Shown here: positions 9,952 through 57,582 of the stretch, piece after piece
Layout of the letters: every line of letters begins with the position of its first letter
How positions within the stretch are numbered: position 1 is the stretch's first letter
Origin: a virus
Lineage: Duplodnaviria > Heunggongvirae > Uroviricota > Caudoviricetes
Reading direction: 5' to 3' (one strand)
Length of the DNA stretch: 64,000 nucleotides
IMG/VR virus record: IMGVR_UViG_3300037418_003161
Span: 172,420 to 236,419 of that record
Made by a program: the position numbers and the translations under genes
The notes under the pieces: model-generated
The model's database searches: none
What the model was told of the DNA's origin: nothing
What the model saw: the letters and a program-made list of their open reading frames with translations, nothing else

Positions 9952-12900
9952 TTATTCGTTTAATAAATCATCAAGTTCGTCAGCAATCTCATTTAGTTTT
10001 TGTCTGCCCTTGTCCAAATCGAATATGAACCCTTCTTTTTCGTTCTTCATATCCAGTAGTTTTCCCAAACGTTGTTCGCTCAAGGGTGCTGCGGGTTGGG
10101 TTTCTTCTTCTTCCGGTGGAGCTTGCTCACCTCCGGTTGCGGGAGGGGCTGCTGCTCCTGTAGGTGGCGCAGCTTCACCACCACCTGTTTCTTCCGGTGG
10201 AGCTTCTTCTGCACCTCCACCCATATCACCACCCAAGTCAGGTAGGCTCATTGAGCCGCCCCCGCCTCCACCACCACTTGCGCCTCCGGCATCGGCTGAA
10301 TCACCACCCGCTGGATTTTCACCACTGGAATAAAGTTGGTTGATTTTATTAAAGATTCCGGTTTTAATGTCTTTGGAGTTGTTGAGTTCTTCTGCAATTC
10401 CACGCTCCACTTTTTGTTGTTGAAGGTCAAGCTTGACTTCTTCATCACTCATACCCAAGAAGTATTTTTTGGCGAATGTGTGGGACACAGGTGCAATGGA
10501 TTGACCATCGCCCACCGCATCTTTATACAGCAGGATTTTCTCTTTCCATTGTTCAATCTTAAGAAGGTCAGATTGTGTGGAAGGATTGGTAAGACCCAAT
10601 GTGAAATTATCCAACTCATCTTCTAATCCAAGAAGATAAAGGTGGATGATAGCAATTTTATTGAGTTCCTGAATCAGAGATTTTTGAATACGATTGATGG
10701 TACGTGCGAAACGTATATCCATAAGCGATAGACCCTTACCTTCACCAACCACTTCTTCGAAACCCAAGAATGCTTTGGGAATACGAAGTGCAGCCAACAT
10801 CTTCTTTTGGATATACTCAATATCTGCGATTTCTCCCAAATTAGAATTAAAAATATATATACCGCATTGAATACCAAAGGTGTGTGCGTTAGAATAGAGT
10901 TCATTACCATCTACGGTAATAGTTCCGGTATCTTGTTTTTCTTCCAGCCATTCTATCGCAATAATCTTGTGATTAAAGAACTTTCTTCGTTGTGAGATTC
11001 CTTGTTCCTTATCGATATAATATCTCCATGCACGAACATTTTTGTAACCCCTACTTTCAGATTCTTTTACTAACCATTCACGATAGTTTCTAAAGCCACG
11101 TTGTTTCAACATCTTAACAACATGGTTATGCGTAAATTCAGAAAGATTGGAAAGTGGACTACTAATTTCACCATTGATTGTTTTAAACAATTTCAAAAAT
11201 TCCGGGGTATTGTTTAGAACATTTAATGTTAAATCTGCACGTCCGGTCTTCTCAAATTCACGAACGTACCATCGATAAATTTCATCGGAGAAAATGAGCG
11301 TTTGGTTTTTCAGAACCTTTTTTCTGAACTCACTATTTTTCCAATTGTTTTTTGTGCGTTCACTGTGTTGTTGTTTTCTATCGTTAGTAAAAGCTTTTGA
11401 AATCTTTTTGCCTTTTGCCTTCAGATTTTCTTCATTTTTACACCATTCCAACATTGGTTGAATGTTTTCAACGGTTGCATATTGTTTCAATCTTTCAAAG
11501 CTTTCATTGAGTTGTTCTTCATTAAGAGAATTAATGTAATTTTTTAAACCTTCGCTTTGTTTTTTACTGATTTCTTGGTGGAAATTGATATCGGATTTAC
11601 GTTTGTTGTGAAATGTTTCTTGTCCCCTTTTTAGTCTTTCATTTACAGCATTTCTAAAATTTTCGTCATTTGCATATTTTTCTGAATAGGCTTGAGAAGC
11701 AATATGTAAATTATCAGCATGATATTTTAAGTGGTCTGAATAACCCATAAAACATAAATTAGTTGGGTTATTATTAAATCGATTTACATCTTTATGGTGT
11801 ATTACACTAAACGTATTCTCCTCATTCTTTTTGTGAATATATTTCTGTACTAATTTGTGTCTGTAAAATTTAGCAACTTCTTTGTGAACCCATAACCATT
11901 TACCTTTCTCGTTATCCCAAACTTGTTTGTAATCCTTGGAATAATTATTTCTCCTATATAAAACTTCGTTTCTAAGATTTAGTGGCATAAGACTTTCACC
12001 AACAACCAAATCTTTTGCTTCTTTCTTTTCACCTAAACGTGTGAGAAACTTATGGTCGGGTGTTGCGGTCACACTTTCACCATTATCCAAAGTAATTTTA
12101 AGAACTTGCGTATTCTTTCTTGTAACCCCGGCCCAAGTAATCGGCAGAGGAATAAACTTACCCGTTTTTGGGTCACATGAGTAAACCCACAGGTTTCTAT
12201 TTCCTTCGTCCCATTCTTTGATAATATCTTTTAATTCCAATGTCCTTCCATCCAATAGGGGAATTTTGGTATCCAAAGCGATACAAGCTCCCGGCAGTGT
12301 TTCAATCGGAGAAGCCTGAGATGGGTCACGAACCGGGATAAAGAAATCTTGGTCAACCGCCATTTGGTTGTAACGAGTATCCACGTTACCGTTGCGTTGG
12401 TCAGCGATTTGGTCACGCTTAAATCTGTTGGCAACACGCTGAACATATTGTTCCACATCCGAATCATCCATATTTCCAACAAAGACCTTAAACACCCTGC
12501 GCTCCGGCGCACGACTTGTCCGGTAAATCAACATCGCATCTTCGGCCAACAAAAGCTGCTTCCATATCCTGCGGCATTTATCCAACATGGACGTGCCATA
12601 GGGAAGTTTGCGGTCATCCCCCAACAGTCGGAAGTGAGCAATCTCCCAAGGTTGGAAGTCCATGTTTTTATCTTTCCAACGGAATTTGACCTGACGTGCC
12701 GCCAAATCATCCTTGTCTTTGATTTCCACTTTCTGCACCATGTTGGCTGTGGAGTTTTTGTAGGCTTCCCCTTCCAGCCGCTCGATTTCCACGTTGGGGA
12801 GTTGGTAGCAACCAACCACCCCCTTTTCGGGGTCTATTTTTAAATATAAGAAATTATCTCCATATTTGCACATGTTCCGACCCCACATCTGTAAATTGGT

Positions 12901-13335
12901 ATTTACATCCAAGACATTGTTAAACAGGTTAGCAAGTGTATTTTTTATACGTTTTGATTCTGAAAAAATTGAAAGAATGTGTCCCTTCTCACTTGGCGTG
13001 GTGGCTTCCTCTGCATAAATGTCCAAAGCAGCAGAAATTTCCGGGGTATACTCCATTGATTCATAATCGAAATATGCCGATAAACGGGTGGTTTCATAAA
13101 CGGTTGATTTGTTATACAACTCATTATCAATCTTCACCCATTTATCCAGAAGGTATTTGGATTGTTGGAGTTCCAACTTTTTCGTGTCGTACTCCTGTTT
13201 GTTATATGTTCTTAATAATTCCTGTGCATTCAGATTGTACGTGTGTTCAGGCTCTTGGGGTTGCTGTATGGAAGCACCACCCCTCCTCAACATCTTGGTT
13301 AGCTTCTGAAGTACGGTTAAATTGTTTTCAGCCAT
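9952..13335 (-). CDS. Portal protein, T4 gp20-like, interrupted by an intein; Gly/Pro/Ala-rich C-terminal low-complexity segment
   Basis: 1127 aa. N-terminal ~350 aa and the post-insertion segment are portal-like by size and synteny. A ~473 aa insertion begins with Cys in ...SPIETLPGA/CIALDTKIPLLDG (Hint block A). Confidence 0.78.
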   Translation of the reverse strand: MAENNLTVLQKLTKMLRRGGASIQQPQEPEHTYNLNAQELLRTYNKQEYDTKKLELQQSKYLLDKWVKIDNELYNKSTVYETTRLSAYFDYESMEYTPEISAALDIYAEEATTPSEKGHILSIFSESKRIKNTLANLFNNVLDVNTNLQMWGRNMCKYGDNFLYLKIDPEKGVVGCYQLPNVEIERLEGEAYKNSTANMVQKVEIKDKDDLAARQVKFRWKDKNMDFQPWEIAHFRLLGDDRKLPYGTSMLDKCRRIWKQLLLAEDAMLIYRTSRAPERRVFKVFVGNMDDSDVEQYVQRVANRFKRDQIADQRNGNVDTRYNQMAVDQDFFIPVRDPSQASPIETLPGACIALDTKIPLLDGRTLELKDIIKEWDEGNRNLWVYSCDPKTGKFIPLPITWAGVTRKNTQVLKITLDNGESVTATPDHKFLTRLGEKKEAKDLVVGESLMPLNLRNEVLYRRNNYSKDYKQVWDNEKGKWLWVHKEVAKFYRHKLVQKYIHKKNEENTFSVIHHKDVNRFNNNPTNLCFMGYSDHLKYHADNLHIASQAYSEKYANDENFRNAVNERLKRGQETFHNKRKSDINFHQEISKKQSEGLKNYINSLNEEQLNESFERLKQYATVENIQPMLEWCKNEENLKAKGKKISKAFTNDRKQQHSERTKNNWKNSEFRKKVLKNQTLIFSDEIYRWYVREFEKTGRADLTLNVLNNTPEFLKLFKTINGEISSPLSNLSEFTHNHVVKMLKQRGFRNYREWLVKESESRGYKNVRAWRYYIDKEQGISQRRKFFNHKIIAIEWLEEKQDTGTITVDGNELYSNAHTFGIQCGIYIFNSNLGEIADIEYIQKKMLAALRIPKAFLGFEEVVGEGKGLSLMDIRFARTINRIQKSLIQELNKIAIIHLYLLGLEDELDNFTLGLTNPSTQSDLLKIEQWKEKILLYKDAVGDGQSIAPVSHTFAKKYFLGMSDEEVKLDLQQQKVERGIAEELNNSKDIKTGIFNKINQLYSSGENPAGGDSADAGGASGGGGGGGSMSLPDLGGDMGGGAEEAPPEETGGGEAAPPTGAAAPPATGGEQAPPEEEETQPAAPLSEQRLGKLLDMKNEKEGFIFDLDKGRQKLNEIADELDDLLNE
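10867..12285 (-). mobile_element. Intein (Hint domain with embedded HNH endonuclease) within the portal gene
   Basis: N-terminal splice junction Cys codon at 12283-12285 (CIALDTKIPLLDGRT). HNH motif VIHHKDVNRFNNNPTNLCFMGYSDHLKYHADN. C-terminal block ITVDGNELYSNAHTFGIQ/CG resembles Hint block G but ends in Gln (10867-10869) followed by Cys, non-canonical. Boundaries approximate. Confidence 0.6.
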
Positions 13336-31278: not shown

Positions 31279-31357
31279 TGGCGTGTATAGAGCCATCCTG
31301 ATGAGATGGATATTCTTAGCGGTATTGAAAACGTGGGTTCGAATCCCACCACGCCAA
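31279..31357 (+). tRNA. Non-canonical tRNA-like gene (hairpin loop CTGATGA would give anticodon GAT, Ile)
   Basis: Perfect acceptor TGGCGTG/CACGCCA and T-arm GTGGG-TTCGAAT-CCCAC. The body has only one clean hairpin (CCATC-CTGATGA-GATGG) plus 5 nt before and 23 nt after it; no standard D-arm. Confidence 0.35.
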
Positions 31358-31950: not shown

Positions 31951-32035
31951 GGGTAGTTGGTCGAGTGGTCGATGGCGGCAGTCTGCAAAACTGTTGGGAG
32001 CAATCCCCGCACAGGTTCGAATCCTGTACTACCCT
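31951..32035 (+). tRNA. tRNA with Cys anticodon GCA and U73 but a class II (long variable arm) body
   Basis: Perfect acceptor GGGTAGT/ACTACCC, Ser-like D-arm GTC-GAGTGGTCGAT-GGC, anticodon stem GCAGT/ACTGT, loop CTGCAAA. 16-nt variable arm GGGA-GCAA-TCCC (GNRA loop). T-arm ACAGG-TTCGAAT-CCTGT, discriminator T. Confidence 0.6.
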
Positions 32036-46534: not shown

Positions 46535-47656
46535 ATGAAAGCAAGCATCGTTTTGGGACTTGGATTTGGAGACGAGGGAAAGGGTATAACAACCGACTTC
46601 CTCTGCTCCAATTCCGATAATCCCATTGTTGTAAGATTTTCAGGTGGACAACAAGCCGGACACACCGTTGTAAAAAATGGTGTCCGGCATATTCATTCCA
46701 GTTATGGAAGCGGCACTCTCCGGGGTGTTCCTTCTTATTTTAGTGAACACACCACTATGTATTTGAACAGCCTTGTTAATGAACGAGAAGTTCTTTTACA
46801 AAAAGGGATTACCCCGGAACTGTACCTACATCCGCTTACCATGGTAACAACACCTTATGATGTTGCGTATAACAGGCTGATGGAAGAGAAAATAAAGCAT
46901 GGGTCATGCGGGTTAGGTATTGCGGCCACCATGAAGCGCAACTTGGAAACCGGGTATAAATTGTATGCGGTGGATTTGAAATATCCGTCTGTTTATAAGC
47001 AAAAAATTGAAGCTATAAAAAAATACTATAGCGGTAAGGTAATGCTTCACGACCAACTGGACTATATTCGCTTGTATGATTATGCGGAAGATTATTTCTT
47101 TGAAAACCTTGAGCGAAAAGACCTTTTCCAAGTTGAGGACTATTCATGTTTGTATGGATATGACCACATCATTTTTGAAGGGTCGCAGGGAATATTATTG
47201 GATATGAATCATGGTTTTTTCCCCAATGTAACCTACGCCAACACCACAAGTAAAAATGTTTTGGAAATTTACAATAAGCTTTCAGGTCACAAAATACCAC
47301 CTCAAATCTATTATGTCACCCGGTGTTACCAAACACGGCATGGCCGGGGGTGGATGAGTAATGAACAGAACTTGGGCCTCGTCAACAATAAAAAGGAAAC
47401 CAATGTCACCAACAACTGGCAGGAGAATTTCCGGGTAGGAGAAATCGACTACGACCTGATTAATTATGCCTTGGACGTGGACAGTATTTATTCCAAGAAT
47501 CTTGTTAAAAAACTGGTGGTAACATGTCTTGACCAACGCCCCGGATTTCAGTTTGACTACACGAAACTCAAATACAGTTTCAAAAGGTATTTGGAATCCC
47601 GCTCAGATGAAACAAAATTAGTCCCTAATAAAAACCAGTATGCTGCAAGCCATTAA
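46535..47656 (+). CDS. purA: Adenylosuccinate synthetase-like protein (PurA family; short, archaeal/PurZ-sized)
   Basis: 373 aa. P-loop GLGFGDEGKGITTD and GGQQAGHTV match the PurA GDEGKGK and GNNAGHT motifs. Shorter than the ~430 aa bacterial PurA. Confidence 0.82.
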   Translation: MKASIVLGLGFGDEGKGITTDFLCSNSDNPIVVRFSGGQQAGHTVVKNGVRHIHSSYGSGTLRGVPSYFSEHTTMYLNSLVNEREVLLQKGITPELYLHPLTMVTTPYDVAYNRLMEEKIKHGSCGLGIAATMKRNLETGYKLYAVDLKYPSVYKQKIEAIKKYYSGKVMLHDQLDYIRLYDYAEDYFFENLERKDLFQVEDYSCLYGYDHIIFEGSQGILLDMNHGFFPNVTYANTTSKNVLEIYNKLSGHKIPPQIYYVTRCYQTRHGRGWMSNEQNLGLVNNKKETNVTNNWQENFRVGEIDYDLINYALDVDSIYSKNLVKKLVVTCLDQRPGFQFDYTKLKYSFKRYLESRSDETKLVPNKNQYAASH

Positions 47657-51028: not shown

Positions 51029-51110
51029 GTCGGTGTGGTGAAATTGGTAGACACACTACGCTCAAAACGTAACGGCATTGGCCATGTCAGTTCGAGTCTG
51101 ACCACCGACA
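51029..51110 (+). tRNA. tRNA-Leu (anticodon CAA), class II
   Basis: Acceptor GTCGGTG/CACCGAC, D-arm GTG/CAC, anticodon loop CTCAAAA, variable arm GGC-ATTG-GCC, T-arm GTCAG-TTCGAGT-CTGAC. Preceded by a terminator and a TTGACA-N17-TATATT element. Confidence 0.7.
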
Positions 51111-51111
51111 C

Positions 51112-51863: not shown

Positions 51864-51945
51864 GCCCTGATGGTGTAACTGGAAGCCACGTATGTCTTAG
51901 GAACATATGCCGTAAGGCGTGTCGGTTCGACCCCGACTCAGGGTA
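51864..51945 (+). tRNA. tRNA-Leu (anticodon TAG), class II
   Basis: Acceptor GCCCTGA/TCAGGGT, anticodon stem TATGT/ACATA, loop CTTAGGA, variable arm GCC-GTAA-GGC, T-arm GTCGG-TTCGACC-CCGAC. Confidence 0.72.
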
Positions 51946-51950
51946 CAAAT

Positions 51951-52038
51951 GGGGCTATGGTGTAACTGGCTAAACATCCCATCCTTACAAGATGGAGACG
52001 AGAAGTATTTAATCCCGGTTCGAGTCCGGGTGGCCCTA
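51951..52038 (+). tRNA. tRNA with Val anticodon TAC and an unusually long (18 nt) variable region
   Basis: Acceptor GGGGCTA/TGGCCCT, anticodon stem CCATC/GATGG (perfect), loop CTTACAA, T-arm CCCGG-TTCGAGT-CCGGG. 18 nt (AGACGAGAAGTATTTAAT) lie between the anticodon stem and T-stem with no clear helix. Confidence 0.5.
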
Positions 52039-52085
52039 CGATTGGTTTTTGCACGTTTTAAACTTAATGGAAAAATGTGTTTTAT

Positions 52086-52169
52086 AGGGTAGTAATCGGT
52101 AAATGGAAGCCGTCCACATTTGGGATGTGGGGTCATAGTACGCTGCAAGTTCGAGTCTTGTCTACCCTA
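52086..52169 (+). tRNA. tRNA-Pro (anticodon TGG) with extended 14-nt variable region
   Basis: Acceptor AGGGTAG/CTACCCT, anticodon stem CCACA/TGTGG, loop TTTGGGA, T-arm GCAAG-TTCGAGT-CTTGT, variable GGTCATAGTACGCT. Confidence 0.55.
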
Positions 52170-52248
52170 CGAAAGTGAACTTAAACAGTCAATCGAAGTT
52201 CTCATGGCCTACAGGGTGCGCTATAGATTGACGAACGAGGTGATGTAG

Positions 52249-52620: not shown

Positions 52621-52998
52621 GTGTATCGCATTAATCATTTGTTTGATAATAGAAACCTTCCAATGACGGATATTATTAAATGGGATGAGTCGTTTGAAAG
52701 ACTGAAAAGATTACATGAGTTCTTTTACCCAAACATAAAAGAAGGGTATTGTAATTTTCGTAGTAGTGGTGGGGAAAATTTAGAGGTTTATAATAGTGTC
52801 ACATTGTTTGTGCCGAATAATGTTTCGGTAAGGAAATATATACAACATGTGGCAAAAACATATTTTAATCTTCTTCCGGCTGTTTGCACTCCAAGTCAAG
52901 GAAATATTTGGTGGTTATTTAAAAACATTCGTAACCCAAACCATGAATTAGTAATTGGGAGGGTGACTCATGAAGATTTTGGTCGCAATAAATTTTAA
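52621..52998 (+). CDS. Hypothetical protein
   Basis: 125 aa ORF (start may be the internal ATG at 52665). Confidence 0.35.
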   Translation: MYRINHLFDNRNLPMTDIIKWDESFERLKRLHEFFYPNIKEGYCNFRSSGGENLEVYNSVTLFVPNNVSVRKYIQHVAKTYFNLLPAVCTPSQGNIWWLFKNIRNPNHELVIGRVTHEDFGRNKF

Positions 52999-53002
52999 AA
53001 TT

Positions 53003-53689
53003 ATGAGAAAGAAATTAGTTGTATTAACCGGGGCAGGAATAAGTGCTGAAAGCGGTCTGAAAACCTTCCGGGACTCCGATGGCCTGTGGGAACAATATAA
53101 TGTGGAAGATGTGGCAACTGCAACAGCATGGAGGAAAAACCCCGGATTGGTTTTGGAGTTTTACAATATGCGCAGGAAGGATGCGGCACAAGCCAACCCA
53201 AATGCCGCCCATATTGGTCTTGCAGAATTGGAAAAGGATTTTGATGTAACCATTCTTACAACCAATGTGGATGACCTTCATGAAAGGGCCGGGTCAACGA
53301 ACGTGGTTCATATTCATGGGGAGTTGACCAAAATGAGAAGTGAAAGGGATGATGATAGAACATATTCTTATGTAAAAGATATTCATTTGGGAGACCTTGC
53401 ACCCGATGGGGGGCAACTCAGACCCCACATTGTATGGTTTGAAGAAGCTGTTCCCATGATACCCATGGCAGAATCCATTGCACGACAGGCAGATATTTTT
53501 GTTATCATTGGAACATCCCTTCAGGTATACCCGGCAGCTAATTTGGTTAACCATGTTGGATACGATGTTCCCAAATACATCATAGATAAGAACATTCCAA
53601 TGTTGTCATGGATTGACAACTTAACAAGAATTCAGAAACCCGCAACAGAAGGTGTTGTGGAATTAAAAGAATTATTAAAGGAGGTTTAA
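53003..53689 (+). CDS. Sir2-family NAD-dependent deacylase (sirtuin), lacking the Zn-ribbon cysteines
   Basis: Start MRKKLVVLTGAGISAESGLKTFR (GAGIS motif). QANPNAAHIGLAELEK, TTNVDDLHERAGS (TQNID-type), HGEL (catalytic His). No CxxC pairs in the small-domain region. Confidence 0.85.
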   Translation: MRKKLVVLTGAGISAESGLKTFRDSDGLWEQYNVEDVATATAWRKNPGLVLEFYNMRRKDAAQANPNAAHIGLAELEKDFDVTILTTNVDDLHERAGSTNVVHIHGELTKMRSERDDDRTYSYVKDIHLGDLAPDGGQLRPHIVWFEEAVPMIPMAESIARQADIFVIIGTSLQVYPAANLVNHVGYDVPKYIIDKNIPMLSWIDNLTRIQKPATEGVVELKELLKEV

Positions 53690-54321: not shown

Positions 54322-54554
54322 CAGCAGCCGAATTGATTATCCTTTTGGAACAACTGCCTCCCGACACAAGAATATTCACCAGTGGATATGAAGGGGGATT
54401 CGATGATGCACTCAAACCAGTTAAAATAGAGGAGTTTGCCTTAAACTATTATACCGCATGGTATTATGGTGAACATGAATTGTTAAACGGGGAAGAGGAC
54501 AAAGCGGAGGCGATTAATAGACGATGTGAAATTGTAAAAGGAGTGGTGATATGA
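54318..54554 (+). CDS. Hypothetical protein
   Basis: 78 aa, ATGA-coupled to neighbours. Confidence 0.35.
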   Translation: MTAAELIILLEQLPPDTRIFTSGYEGGFDDALKPVKIEEFALNYYTAWYYGEHELLNGEEDKAEAINRRCEIVKGVVI

Positions 54555-55273
54555 CCTATAAGGCGTATATACAGGCACAAAATAATTTCCCAATCGCAGA
54601 TTGGGCTGTATCAGCTTATTTGGGGTTTCGGGAAAAACAGACAGATATTGTATTCTTTGAAGATATCAAAGACGTACCAACGTCAAGCTGGAATATTGTG
54701 GTGGCTGAAATCATTCCCACCAATCACTACTTGCAGCGATTGGGGATTGAACCCAAACGTGCATTGAATATCCCGGATGAATTGATGAAATACACCGGGC
54801 GAAAAATTGACTATATGACAATGGGGGAGTTTAAGATGGATACCCGGCTTCCCGTTTTTGTAAAACCCAATCGATATTCCAAGGAATTTGTAGCCGGGGT
54901 GATAAGTGAACCACAAAGCCGCAGCTTTTTCTTCAATAATGTTGAAGACGACTGCCCGGTACTGGTATCAGAAGTGGTGGATTTTGTGAGTGAATACCGT
55001 TGTTATGTGATTAACGGTGTATTGAAGGGGATTAAGCATTATTTAGGAGATATCCGCATTTTCCCCGATGTAAAGGTAATTGATGCGGCCATTGCAGATT
55101 ACAAAATCGCTCCGGTAGGATACGCCATCGACTTTGGTGTGACAAGTGATGGCCGGACGCTTCTTGTGGAGTGTAACGATGGATGGTCATTGGGTAATTA
55201 CGGATTGGATAATTTGGTATATACAAACTTATTATGTAGACGGTGGGTAGAACTATTAAAAAATAGAAAATAA
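54551..55273 (+). CDS. ATP-grasp fold protein
   Basis: 240 aa. LPVFVKPNRYSKEF, EYRCYVINGVL, GYAIDFGVTSDGRTLLVECNDGWSLG resemble ATP-grasp ATP-binding and Mg-binding segments. Confidence 0.55.
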   Translation: MTYKAYIQAQNNFPIADWAVSAYLGFREKQTDIVFFEDIKDVPTSSWNIVVAEIIPTNHYLQRLGIEPKRALNIPDELMKYTGRKIDYMTMGEFKMDTRLPVFVKPNRYSKEFVAGVISEPQSRSFFFNNVEDDCPVLVSEVVDFVSEYRCYVINGVLKGIKHYLGDIRIFPDVKVIDAAIADYKIAPVGYAIDFGVTSDGRTLLVECNDGWSLGNYGLDNLVYTNLLCRRWVELLKNRK

Positions 55274-56051: not shown

Positions 56052-56124
56052 TTCCCCTCATGGCGTAATGGTAGCGTTGCAGATTCTTACTCTGAAGGTC
56101 ATAGTTCGATTCTATGTGGGGGAA
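56052..56124 (+). tRNA. tRNA-Lys-like (anticodon CTT), weak D-arm, possible pseudogene; followed by a terminator hairpin
   Basis: Perfect T-arm CATAG-TTCGATT-CTATG. Acceptor TTCCCCT/TGGGGGA has 6 of 7 pairs. Anticodon stem CAGA/TCTG with loop TTCTTAC. The D-stem pairs poorly. Hairpin GGAACATA-aaa-TATGTTCC plus T7 at 56120-56147. Confidence 0.4.
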
Positions 56125-56159: not shown

Positions 56160-56247
56160 GGGCGTATGGCGCAAAAGGTAGCGCATCTCACTTTTAATGA
56201 GAGGGGTAGACGTAAGTCCGTTCAGGGTTCGAATCCCTGTGCGCCCA
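56160..56247 (+). tRNA. tRNA-Lys (anticodon TTT) with a 20-nt variable arm
   Basis: Acceptor GGGCGTA/TGCGCCC, D-arm GCGC/GCGC, anticodon stem TCTCA/TGAGA (perfect), loop CTTTTAA, variable GGGGTAGACGTAAGTCCGTT (GAC-GTAA-GTC mini-helix), T-arm CAGGG-TTCGAAT-CCCTG. Confidence 0.6.
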
Positions 56248-56252
56248 CAACA

Positions 56253-57144: not shown

Positions 57145-57582
57145 ATGAAGTCAACGCTTAAAATTGGTATTGTCGGGTCAAGAGATTTCGACAATTATGA
57201 GATGCTTTTAAAAACTATGGATTGGGTAATCGAAACCTTTGGTGAACCTTCCTTGGTAATTTCAGGAGGGTCGGGAAGACATTATCCAGAAAATAGGGTG
57301 GAAAAAACTAAATCAGCAGATATGCTTGCAGAAAGATTTGCTGATGAATGTGGAATTGAAAAGTTGGTTCATGAAGCCGATTGGGGCAAATACAATGCGT
57401 CTGCCGGGCCGATTCGAAACACCAAAATTGTTGCGGATTCAGACATAATTGTGGTGTTTTGGGATACGGATTTTAACAAGAAGCGTTCCGGGTCAAAAGA
57501 TACGGTTCAAAAAGCCCTTGCCAAAAAAATGAAGGTGGTTTCGGTAAATATGTTTAACGGACACATTCAAGTATTTAATTAA
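57145..57582 (+). CDS. SLOG/DUF2493-like (LOG-family Rossmann) protein
   Basis: 145 aa. KIGIVGSRDF...VISGGSGRHYPENRVEKTKSADMLAERFA resembles the I.GSR...SGGA.GAD..A..WA pattern of YpsA/DUF2493 SLOG proteins. Confidence 0.45.
   Translation: MKSTLKIGIVGSRDFDNYEMLLKTMDWVIETFGEPSLVISGGSGRHYPENRVEKTKSADMLAERFADECGIEKLVHEADWGKYNASAGPIRNTKIVADSDIIVVFWDTDFNKKRSGSKDTVQKALAKKMKVVSVNMFNGHIQVFN

Follow-up and report, generated by a model that had tools for sequence, protein, structure and literature searches.

Long variable arms on valine, proline and lysine tRNA genes of a large T4-like phage and on class I tRNAs of other phages

Known long-armed tRNAs and the present locus

In bacteria, the long variable arm is limited to the transfer RNAs (tRNAs) of leucine, serine and tyrosine, plus selenocysteine (Sec), and this rule is built into models of tRNA identity, into annotation software and into orthogonal tRNA design. 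In this study, we analysed a window of 64,000 nucleotides (nt) from a virus of the Caudoviricetes (IMG/VR record IMGVR_UViG_3300037418_003161, positions 172,420 to 236,419), the whole stretch of DNA considered here, in which three tRNA genes of class I isotypes, tRNA-Val(UAC), tRNA-Pro(UGG) and tRNA-Lys(UUU), carry variable regions of 18, 14 and 20 nt, respectively. We observed that variable arms on class I tRNAs are a widespread and conserved feature of phage tRNA arrays. No description of such arms on phage tRNAs was found in open-access papers and preprints, and the examples deposited in GenBank since the phiKZ genome carry plain labels, tRNA-Asn or tRNA-Lys.

With reference to structure, the closest relatives of these armed tRNAs are ordinary class II tRNAs, in which a variable region of at least 10 nt, inserted between positions 45 and 46, folds into a stem-loop. 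The phage tRNAs resemble them in stems of 3-5 base pairs (bp), like those of Leu and Tyr tRNAs, and in the longer, class II-like D arm that many of them possess, whereas they have class I anticodons and discriminators (Val, Pro, Lys, Cys, Asn, Thr, Trp and others); moreover, the D arm of the window tRNA-Lys is still of class I type, and there is hardly any pairing in the Val and Pro inserts. In concept, the nematode nev-tRNAs and the eukaryotic noncanonical variable-arm tRNAs come nearest. The former, according to Hamashima et al. (PMC3333845), are class II tRNAs decoding an alternative code for leucine with the codon meaning changed, whereas the phage discriminators follow the anticodon; both groups, the latter from a 2016 Molecular Biology and Evolution paper cited in PMC5389517, belong to eukaryotic nuclei, unlike the armed tRNAs reported here, which belong to bacteriophages. 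Allo-tRNAs, (8/4) tRNA-Ser and tRNA-His (Mukai et al., PMC5389517) were likewise mined from metagenomes, some of them in phage clusters, and the allo-tRNAs are long-armed; however, they combine an 8/4 or 9/3 arrangement of acceptor and T stems with Ser-type identity, and the window tRNAs are of the standard 7/5 type. The type I tRNA-Leu of Streptomyces coelicolor (PMC6614811), which has no arm, crosses the same boundary between class I and class II with cognate charging kept, but there the arm was lost rather than gained, and the carrier is a bacterium.

Again, phage isoacceptors that duplicate a host function, are structurally changed and are spared by a nuclease have been observed in antiviral defence, with Lys-UUU as a recurrent target: T5 tRNA-Lys against PARIS (PMC11464382), T5 tRNA-Tyr against retron Eco7 PtuAB (PMC11555353), and mycobacteriophage anticodon-loop variants (PMC10264068). 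Unlike the tRNAs of this study, these escape by base substitutions in the anticodon stem-loop, and the variable region is not mentioned in those three papers.

Structure, conservation and spread of the armed tRNAs

The source of the window is a large T4-like phage, as judged by its encoded proteins, which include a gp23-type major capsid protein, a T4-type portal, a large terminase, a ClpB-like ATPase and a PurZ-like adenylosuccinate synthetase; a megablast search of its tRNA region against 50,697 deposited phage records returned no match and no close relative. ARAGORN identified 17 tRNA genes in three clusters, and Rfam also 17, including one missed by ARAGORN. Variable regions were taken as everything between the anticodon stem and the T stem, each of 5 bp, with lengths depending on the ARAGORN folds. 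At the ARAGORN coordinates 51951-52039 (Val-TAC), 52086-52170 (Pro-TGG) and 56160-56248 (Lys-TTT), the program agreed with the lengths of 18, 14 and 20 nt given in the initial annotation, and the perfect anticodon stems (CCATC/GATGG in Val, CCACA/TGTGG in Pro, TCTCA/TGAGA in Lys) and canonical T arms (loops TTCGAGT, TTCGAGT and TTCGAAT) that it had reported were found as well. These regions exceed the 4-5 nt loop of class I by 9-15 nt and reach the class II length of at least 10 nt, on tRNAs whose anticodons UAC, UGG and UUU lie outside the class II identities (Leu, Ser, Tyr, Sec), a combination which is indeed unusual by textbook rules. In each of the three, the acceptor stem is 7 bp long and the T stem 5 bp, unlike an 8/4 or 9/3 arrangement, and position 37 (A in Val, G in Pro, A in Lys) matches the expectation for each isotype. 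A covariance model placing the extra bases outside the variable region had been named beforehand as grounds for abandoning the claim; the Rfam model RF00005 (71 positions, gathering threshold 29 bits) aligned them as insertions within the variable region. There they resemble neither anticodon-loop group I introns nor bulge-helix-bulge introns, and no other Rfam family matched the Val/Pro/Lys region. Altogether, four of the approximately 13 window tRNAs other than Leu, Ser and Tyr are armed, or five if an Ile-like element described below is counted; the window is part of a genome, and normal partner genes for Lys-UUU, Val-UAC and Pro-UGG may lie elsewhere.

The tRNA-Val(UAC) gene (51951-52038, + strand) is 88 nt long to A73, is followed by C74 without an encoded CCA, and matches RF00005 over model positions 1-71 with 47.6 bits (E = 4e-8). 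Its 18-nt variable region AGACGAGAAGTATTTAAT (51996-52013, +), which reads AGAC-GAGAA-GTAT plus TTAAT and ends in U48, displays in the ARAGORN fold a weak helix of four positions (C-G, A-U, G.A, A-U) around the GNRA-like pentaloop GAGAA. A homologue with 82% identity and a 16-nt insert AGACGCGAAGTATAAT was detected by sensitive blastn in LR756501, a curated 735-kb genome of an uncultured phage, and a motif scan of IMG/VR found the Val insert in ten more contigs of 49-365 kb among the matches listed. Two family members, from the viral loci L265 and L350, were recovered by a scan that did not use the insert. In the alignment of nine distinct sequences (eight homologues and the window), pairing is 100% in each of the four stems, two-sided changes are seen at 18 of the 26 pairs, and the tertiary pair 15:48 covaries (A-U in eight, G-C in L350); because of this covariation, the last base of the insert is taken as nucleotide 48 and the insert is considered to act at the RNA level and not as a promoter. 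Comparatively, the insert is the best-conserved segment of the whole tRNA, as 12 of its 16 positions are kept in L350 (4/16 differ) against 38 differences among 70 body positions. The motif AGRCG-NNN-AGTAT..AAY is retained in LR756501, L265 and L350, the last with an otherwise unrelated body, and is confined to Val-UAC tRNAs among the roughly 2,000 tRNAs examined. Within the insert, the C-G and G.A pairs are invariant across the family, the A-U pair is replaced by G.U in L350, and the loop is GAGAA, GCGAA or GAATA. The initial annotation had seen no obvious helix in the Val and Pro inserts, which is right for Pro, where none is credible, and partly right for Val, where the helix is weak; the Val insert is, however, a conserved motif rather than structureless filler.

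Two other ideas about this gene were rejected. The possibility that Val-UAC arose recently by copying of the neighbouring Leu-UAG, with an anticodon one base apart and the first 12 nt of the D arm alike, was dismissed, as the D-arm motif is also present in the Gln and Trp tRNAs of the window and the similarity to Leu equals that to class I (0.42). Likewise, GTATAAT in the insert was considered as an internal -10 element with CTTACA as -35, and was discarded: no site was called in the window copy TATTTAAT, and L350 has TATAAC instead.

The tRNA-Lys(UUU) gene (56160-56247, +; 88 nt to A73) has a D arm of class I type (4 bp, 8-nt loop) and matches the Rfam model over positions 1-71 with 63 bits (E = 2e-12). 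Its 20-nt variable region GGGGTAGACGTAAGTCCGTT (56203-56222, +) contains the hairpin GAC-GTAA-GTC with a GNRA tetraloop at 56209-56218, and this mini-helix, already pointed out in the initial annotation, is present in the minimum-free-energy fold. The window gene as query gave no match in the collection of 50,697 phage records, but a scan keyed on the anticodon loop and T loop revealed, among the matches listed, a close relative in L072 and identical copies in L032, L074 and L119, with compensatory changes in all four stems. Between the window and L072, only 1 of 20 insert positions differs (GTAA to GAAA, still GNRA), against 17 of 68 in the body.

The Pro gene is the weak case. This tRNA-Pro(UGG)-like gene (52086-52169, +; 84 nt to A73) has a 3-bp D stem and scores 24.1 bits in Rfam, below the threshold of 29; the match appears only for an isolated 151-nt stretch and is absent in searches of 5.5 kb and 64 kb, the D arm is skipped by the model, and the junction between acceptor and D stems has 3 nt (TAA) against the usual 2. 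Its 14-nt variable region GGTCATAGTACGCT (52131-52144, +) forms no dependable helix. The closest relatives (L261, L274 and others) have the acceptor stem, the anticodon arm and a near-identical T arm in common with it, together with a normal 2-nt junction and variable loops of 7-8 nt containing ACATAGT or ACATTCAC, and the CATAGT core of the window insert also occurs in their 7-nt loop. No homologue of the 14-nt insert was found among the matches listed from IMG/VR and metagenome scans keyed on the Pro anticodon arm, and 5 of the 10 metagenome matches were due to chance, inside one coding gene. The gene is therefore regarded as a lineage-specific expansion with a disturbed core. The same scans disclosed other long-arm Pro tRNAs with variable regions of 10-25 nt, some with strongly covarying stems of 8-9 bp. 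Those of six loci (L286, L287, L295, L297, L304 and L344) are Pro-UGG tRNAs with 25-nt arms whose 8-9 bp stems covary clearly (TCACGGCAC...GTTGTCGTGC versus TGAGGGCAC...GTTGTCCTCC), and these arms are far longer than any Leu or Tyr arm in the same loci.

To describe the wider distribution, viral sequences were scanned with the pattern CTTTTAA, then 20-30 nt, then GGTTCGAATCC, which matches Lys-UUU only with a long variable region, so that its hits select armed Lys tRNAs; each collection scan is biased by its own pattern, and the viral and cellular totals are lower bounds. At least 119 loci were obtained, at least 99 of them with an ARAGORN-confirmed Lys-UUU carrying a variable region of 10-21 nt. 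Among the matches listed, a hairpin of at least 3 bp is present in 79% of the inserts against 33% of shuffled inserts, GNRA tetraloops cap 64% of these hairpins against 31% of the class II arms in the same loci, and the arms are mostly covarying stems of 3-5 bp with a GNRA loop. In 28 distinct Lys tRNAs with 15-nt inserts, also from the matches listed, the three inner arm pairs occur as four or five pair types each (three at one position), and mismatches are nearly absent; this covariation score was reached by none of 500 shuffles, and all slid registers collapse. The inserts of different tRNAs have no common sequence beyond the GNRA-type loop, so that the shared processing signal suggested earlier is not supported.

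These loci also yielded, as by-catch, similar arms on Asn, Thr, Cys, Trp, Met, Ile, Glu, Gly, His, Gln, Arg and Pro tRNAs. Many cognate synthetases, as well as EF-Tu and the ribosome, can probably cope with an added arm on 12 or more isotypes, and phage tRNA arrays sample structural space that is unused by cells. In a less biased sample of 90 loci picked by the Pro anticodon arm, variable regions of 9 nt or more were seen on 40 of 606 distinct class I tRNAs (6.6%), and at least one armed class I tRNA is present in 21 of the 90 loci. The apparent enrichment of Lys was rejected as an artefact of the Lys-based scan, the figure for Lys in this sample being 1 of 28. The initial annotation had called the expansion across a phage repertoire unusual; the expansion itself is borne out by the window, but it is not peculiar to this phage, being widespread and found even in phiKZ, whose tRNA-Asn, annotated with 89 nt, carries the insert TGGCGAAAGCCCACC and G73. 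Armed tRNA-Lys(CUU) and tRNA-Lys(UUU) are present in RcXuper, and armed tRNA-Lys and tRNA-Trp in CcrColossus, so that cultured models are at hand in the phiKZ tRNA-Asn, the tRNA-Lys and tRNA-Trp of CcrColossus and the tRNA-Lys of RcXuper; natural armed class I tRNAs could also serve as scaffolds for tagging or orthogonalising tRNAs.

Of the 120 Lys-pattern matches listed from bacterial and archaeal genomes (596 Gb), only 12 are real, and six of these 12 sit in arrays of 10-17 tRNAs, a position typical of phage DNA. With chance hits as the yardstick, the viral enrichment over cellular sequences is roughly 40-fold among the matches listed, which is a rough figure. Additionally, a normal tRNA with the same anticodon lies within the approximately 10 kb fetched for 62 of 196 armed tRNAs among the matches listed, often at a distance of 80-200 nt; as the bodies of such partners are only about 64% identical, the pairs are old and retained, not recent insertions.

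In many of the loci (L027, L028, L036, L037, L074, L119 and others), Leu tRNAs were observed that are class I-shaped, 73-77 nt long, with variable loops of 4-5 nt; L074 and L119 have four Leu tRNAs each (UAA, CAA, UAG, AAG) with loops of only 4-7 nt. Phage Ile-UAU tRNAs (L053, L076, L130, L279 and L343) have arms with covarying stems (GCAC/GTGC, CGC/GCG, GCGG/CCGT, TCTC/GAGA) and an invariant 7-nt loop, CAGAUUA, which looks like a specific recognition element.

Charging, origin and possible function of the arm

The discriminator follows the anticodon isotype in the armed tRNAs, with G in 9 of 10 Asn and all seven Trp, U in 5 of 6 Cys and all three Gly, C in both His, and A in all eight Val and 76 of 98 Lys tRNAs; no uniform Leu, Tyr or Ser pattern was seen in the discriminators of approximately 200 phage armed tRNAs. 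The large open reading frames (ORFs) of the window read cleanly in the standard code. In 24 of them, GTA and GTG make up 51% of the Val codons and AAA makes up 68% of 881 Lys codons, so that mischarging of Lys-UUU would be catastrophic. As the discriminator tracks the anticodon and codon usage is standard, cognate charging is to be expected; it is most likely by far, and the Val and Lys genes very probably encode functional cognate tRNAs with a selected extra arm. The contrary proposal, that the arm turns the tRNA into a substrate of the leucyl-, seryl- or tyrosyl-tRNA synthetase (LeuRS, SerRS or TyrRS) and that Val, Pro or Lys codons are thereby read otherwise, could draw on the arm length of 3-4 bp, as in Leu and Tyr tRNAs, on A73 of the window Val, Pro and Lys tRNAs, which is the Leu/Tyr discriminator, and on the precedent of the nev-tRNAs (PMC3333845). 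Such recoding is nevertheless exceedingly improbable, given that the discriminators follow the anticodon across isotypes rather than Leu, Ser or Tyr, and that conserved structural genes rich in AAA and GTA/GTG lie in ORFs that are clean in the standard code. It is further opposed by arms that are too short for SerRS-type recognition, and by the anticodon being the main identity element for the lysyl-, valyl- and prolyl-tRNA synthetases (identity rules are reviewed in PMC9976931).

Conservation and covariation argue that the arm is maintained by selection, well for Val and Lys and weakly for Pro. Armed class I isoacceptors would thus form a phage-associated tRNA type with the arm inserted between positions 45 and 46 and nucleotide 48 as its last base, which is well supported for Val and Lys. 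For the selective advantage, we tentatively favour protection from tRNA-targeting enzymes, a possibility that falls somewhat short of probable; evasion of host nucleases of this kind had been raised in the initial annotation and stays plausible. The armed tRNA would be charged by its cognate synthetase through the anticodon and discriminator base, and would be used by EF-Tu and the ribosome, which already fit the arms of Leu, Ser and Tyr tRNAs. The extra arm would give the anticodon/D/variable half of the molecule another outline, and the phage copy would become a poor substrate for tRNA nucleases or toxins that read shape, whether these act in host defence or in the phage's own shut-off of its host, so that phage translation could continue while ordinary tRNAs with that anticodon are destroyed. 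A broader form of this proposal, in which phages switch the structural class of their tRNAs both ways (an arm onto class I, off Leu) and Schlafen, PARIS, HEPN or shut-off nucleases spare the phage set, is more doubtful; pairs of normal and armed genes would then hedge translation efficiency against survival under attack, and the arm-less Leu tRNAs of the same loci are the mirror image expected if an enemy reads tRNA class. Protection is favoured because of the retained same-anticodon pairs, the class switching in both directions, the precedents of escape and the targets of AriB and Schlafen. T5 tRNA-Lys escapes the PARIS nuclease AriB, whose cut between positions 40 and 41 (PMC11464382) adjoins the variable region and thus lends circumstantial support, and Lys-UUU and Val-UAC are among the tRNAs cut by a bacterial Schlafen (PMC13056530). 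If so, the shape of the tRNA, and not the anticodon loop, would be a possible unrecognised axis in the arms race of tRNA-targeting immunity.

Several observations weigh against this proposal. PrrC and the colicins E5 and D mainly recognise the anticodon stem-loop, and with such recognition an extra arm would not obviously mask the target. AriB also reads mainly the anticodon stem-loop, according to a stem-swap experiment (PMC11464382). The covariation shows a structural need for the arm, which is not proof of an advantage, and the helix of the Val insert displays a single one-sided change (A-U to G.U) and zero two-sided covariation. In the Pro-keyed sample, the carriers are Gln, Pro, Thr, Ile and Gly, with Lys at 1/28, a mismatch with the best-known nuclease targets. 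It is conceivable, but on balance doubtful, that the window Pro gene is degenerate and decaying. Moreover, the D-arm lengths of the armed tRNAs have moved towards 17 nt, the mode of class II, and the body is closest to Leu, Ser or Tyr in 55 of 211 armed tRNAs, compared with 3 of 200 controls of normal class I and 133 of 150 of class II, in a nearest-neighbour comparison that is noisy for 70-nt molecules. Part of the phenomenon could accordingly come from class II scaffolds by inheritance and not by adaptive addition.

The class II-like bodies and the 17-nt D-arm mode are what would be left behind by a fast turnover of tRNA arrays, in which Leu, Ser or Tyr scaffolds take class I anticodons, other tRNAs gain hairpins, and no special function is involved; the arm would persist as translation tolerates it and, once the core has adapted, its loss would misfold the tRNA. 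The phiKZ tRNA-Asn(GUU), with a Tyr/Ser-type D arm and an anticodon one base from Tyr GUA, fits this. So do the armed Ala tRNAs, which number 0 of 43 and 0 of 24 in the two samples, as Ala identity lies in the acceptor stem and is therefore not gainable by an anticodon shift, and such shifts are documented elsewhere (PMC3923123). This explanation is nonetheless unlikely. The majority of armed tRNAs have bodies nearer to class I, and the noisy nearest-neighbour scores for the window are 0.57 for class I against 0.40 for class II in Pro, with normal Pro tRNAs closest, 0.49 against 0.45 in Lys (marginally class I) and 0.42 for both in Val (a tie). The typical class I D arm of the window Lys and the normal Pro tRNAs nearest to the window Pro suggest that at least these two are additions to class I bodies. 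Inheritance also leaves aside that the Lys and Val inserts are conserved in sequence above the stems, that the Val motif recurs on the unrelated Val body of L350, that GNRA loops are enriched over the class II arms of the same loci, and that normal and armed tRNAs with the same anticodon persist side by side. From these comparisons, two routes of origin seem to exist, namely an anticodon shift on a class II scaffold and an arm added to a class I body.

The sequence conservation of the Val and Lys inserts beyond pairing, and the CAGAUUA loop held invariant on the covarying stems of phage Ile-UAU tRNAs, would also suit an arm that serves as a handle, by which a phage partner (a modification or repair enzyme, a semi-orthogonal synthetase or a non-ribosomal user of aminoacyl-tRNA) tells phage from host tRNAs. 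GNRA loops are common docking modules, and huge phages encode synthetases and tRNA enzymes, both of which speak for a handle. A non-ribosomal precedent exists in the phage enzyme Mom, which uses Gly-tRNA for DNA modification (PMC13219725). This role is still rather improbable, as no synthetase, tRNA-modifying or other tRNA-related enzyme was found among 30 window ORFs compared with Pfam (10 also with PHROGs), the neighbours being SIR2, ATP-grasp and SLOG-family proteins; the arms vary by isotype and lineage, which implies no single partner, and cultured phages with few translation genes possess armed tRNAs too. That a GNRA-capped hairpin stiffens the core, or speeds the folding of heavily expressed and perhaps under-modified phage tRNAs in a dying host, has less probability again. 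It agrees with the dominance of the exceptionally stable GNRA and UUCG loops in the inserts, with the kept and covarying core pair 15:48 and with the G.U-rich D stems of several window tRNAs, but it explains neither the adjacent normal tRNA with the same anticodon nor the conservation of the barely pairing Val insert, and bacteria, which face the same folding problem, almost never have such tRNAs (12 true cases among the 120 bacterial and archaeal matches listed). Finally, the sub-threshold Pro gene, with its enlarged junction and an insert without helix or homologue, might suggest that inserts belong to decaying pseudogenes or assembly artefacts, or are intervening sequences removed to give a 76-nt tRNA. 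This is very improbable for the phenomenon at large, for independent metagenomes and a curated 735-kb genome contain conserved Val and Lys tRNAs with compensatory changes, and the same architecture occurs in isolate phage genomes. With regard to processing, we know of no bacterial or phage mechanism that excises 10-15 nt from a variable region; group I introns, located in the anticodon loop, are far longer, and the inserts have, to our knowledge, no bulge-helix-bulge motif.

Other tRNA genes and neighbouring genes of the window

The fourth armed tRNA of the window is a tRNA-Cys(GCA) (31951-32035, +; ARAGORN, and 54.2 bits in Rfam) with U73 and a 16-nt variable arm, GGGA-GCAA-TCCC; Cys-GCA tRNAs with arms of 16-17 nt are also harboured by related phage contigs. 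The Ile-like element (31279-31357, +), which scores 37.8 bits in Rfam and is the gene missed by ARAGORN, has an Ile GAU anticodon arm (CCATC-CTGATGA-GATGG), a 7-bp acceptor stem, a normal T arm and A73. Its usual D-arm site is only a linker of 7-8 nt, and 22-27 nt lie between the anticodon and T arms, including a D-loop-like motif, TAGCGGT/TAATTGGT. Ten homologues were detected in viral contigs of 26-482 kb (including L117:3902-3998(-) and L364-L372); in this family the acceptor stem covaries strongly, with 5 of 7 pairs two-sided, and the remainder is too invariant to fix the fold. Judged from these features, the element may be a tRNA with its D element moved to the variable position. Annotation pipelines may mis-score armed tRNAs, as with the Pro and Ile-like genes of the window.

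Regarding the 3' ends, C directly follows the discriminator base in 16 of the 17 ARAGORN genes, mostly as part of CA but never as CCA; the patterns from the discriminator onwards are ACA, GCA, TCA, ACG and ACT (e.g. 52038-52040 and 56247-56249). The exception is the Lys-CUU gene at 56054, which reads AACA and fits only if shifted by one base, and the full CCA is encoded only by the Ile-like gene at 31279 among the window tRNAs. C74 without CCA is present in 520 of 1,323 tRNAs of the fetched viral loci, which suggests a particular route of 3'-end maturation or repair. The class II tRNAs of the window also have short arms capped by tetraloops, GCC-GTAA-GGC in Leu-UAG (51864-51946) and GGC-ATTG-GCC in Leu-CAA (51029-51111). 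The 8-mer TGTTTTAT stands immediately upstream of both Leu-CAA and Pro-UGG, and in the 46-nt spacer between Val and Pro (52040-52085, +) no promoter-like or terminator-like sites were called on the + strand.

Between the tRNA clusters lie genes for SIR2-family, R2K-clade ATP-grasp and SLOG/YspA-family proteins (52970-53689, 54551-55273 and 57145-57582, all +), which by their families could form a counter-defence module related to nicotinamide adenine dinucleotide (NAD) or nucleotides. A search for loci with a neighbouring 405-amino-acid protein returned none. Homologues of the SIR2 protein are also present in other phage contigs of 130-500 kb, and in the ten related loci fetched through this neighbour the tRNA content is not syntenic. 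The adenylosuccinate synthetase homologue at 46535-47656 (+) matches a PHROG annotated as 2-aminooxy adenylosuccinate synthetase (E = 3.6e-62), and this PurZ-like product hints that the phage may use 2-aminoadenine for adenine in its DNA. The T4-type portal gene (9952-13335, - strand; 1127 amino acids) is split by an intein with an HNH endonuclease domain.

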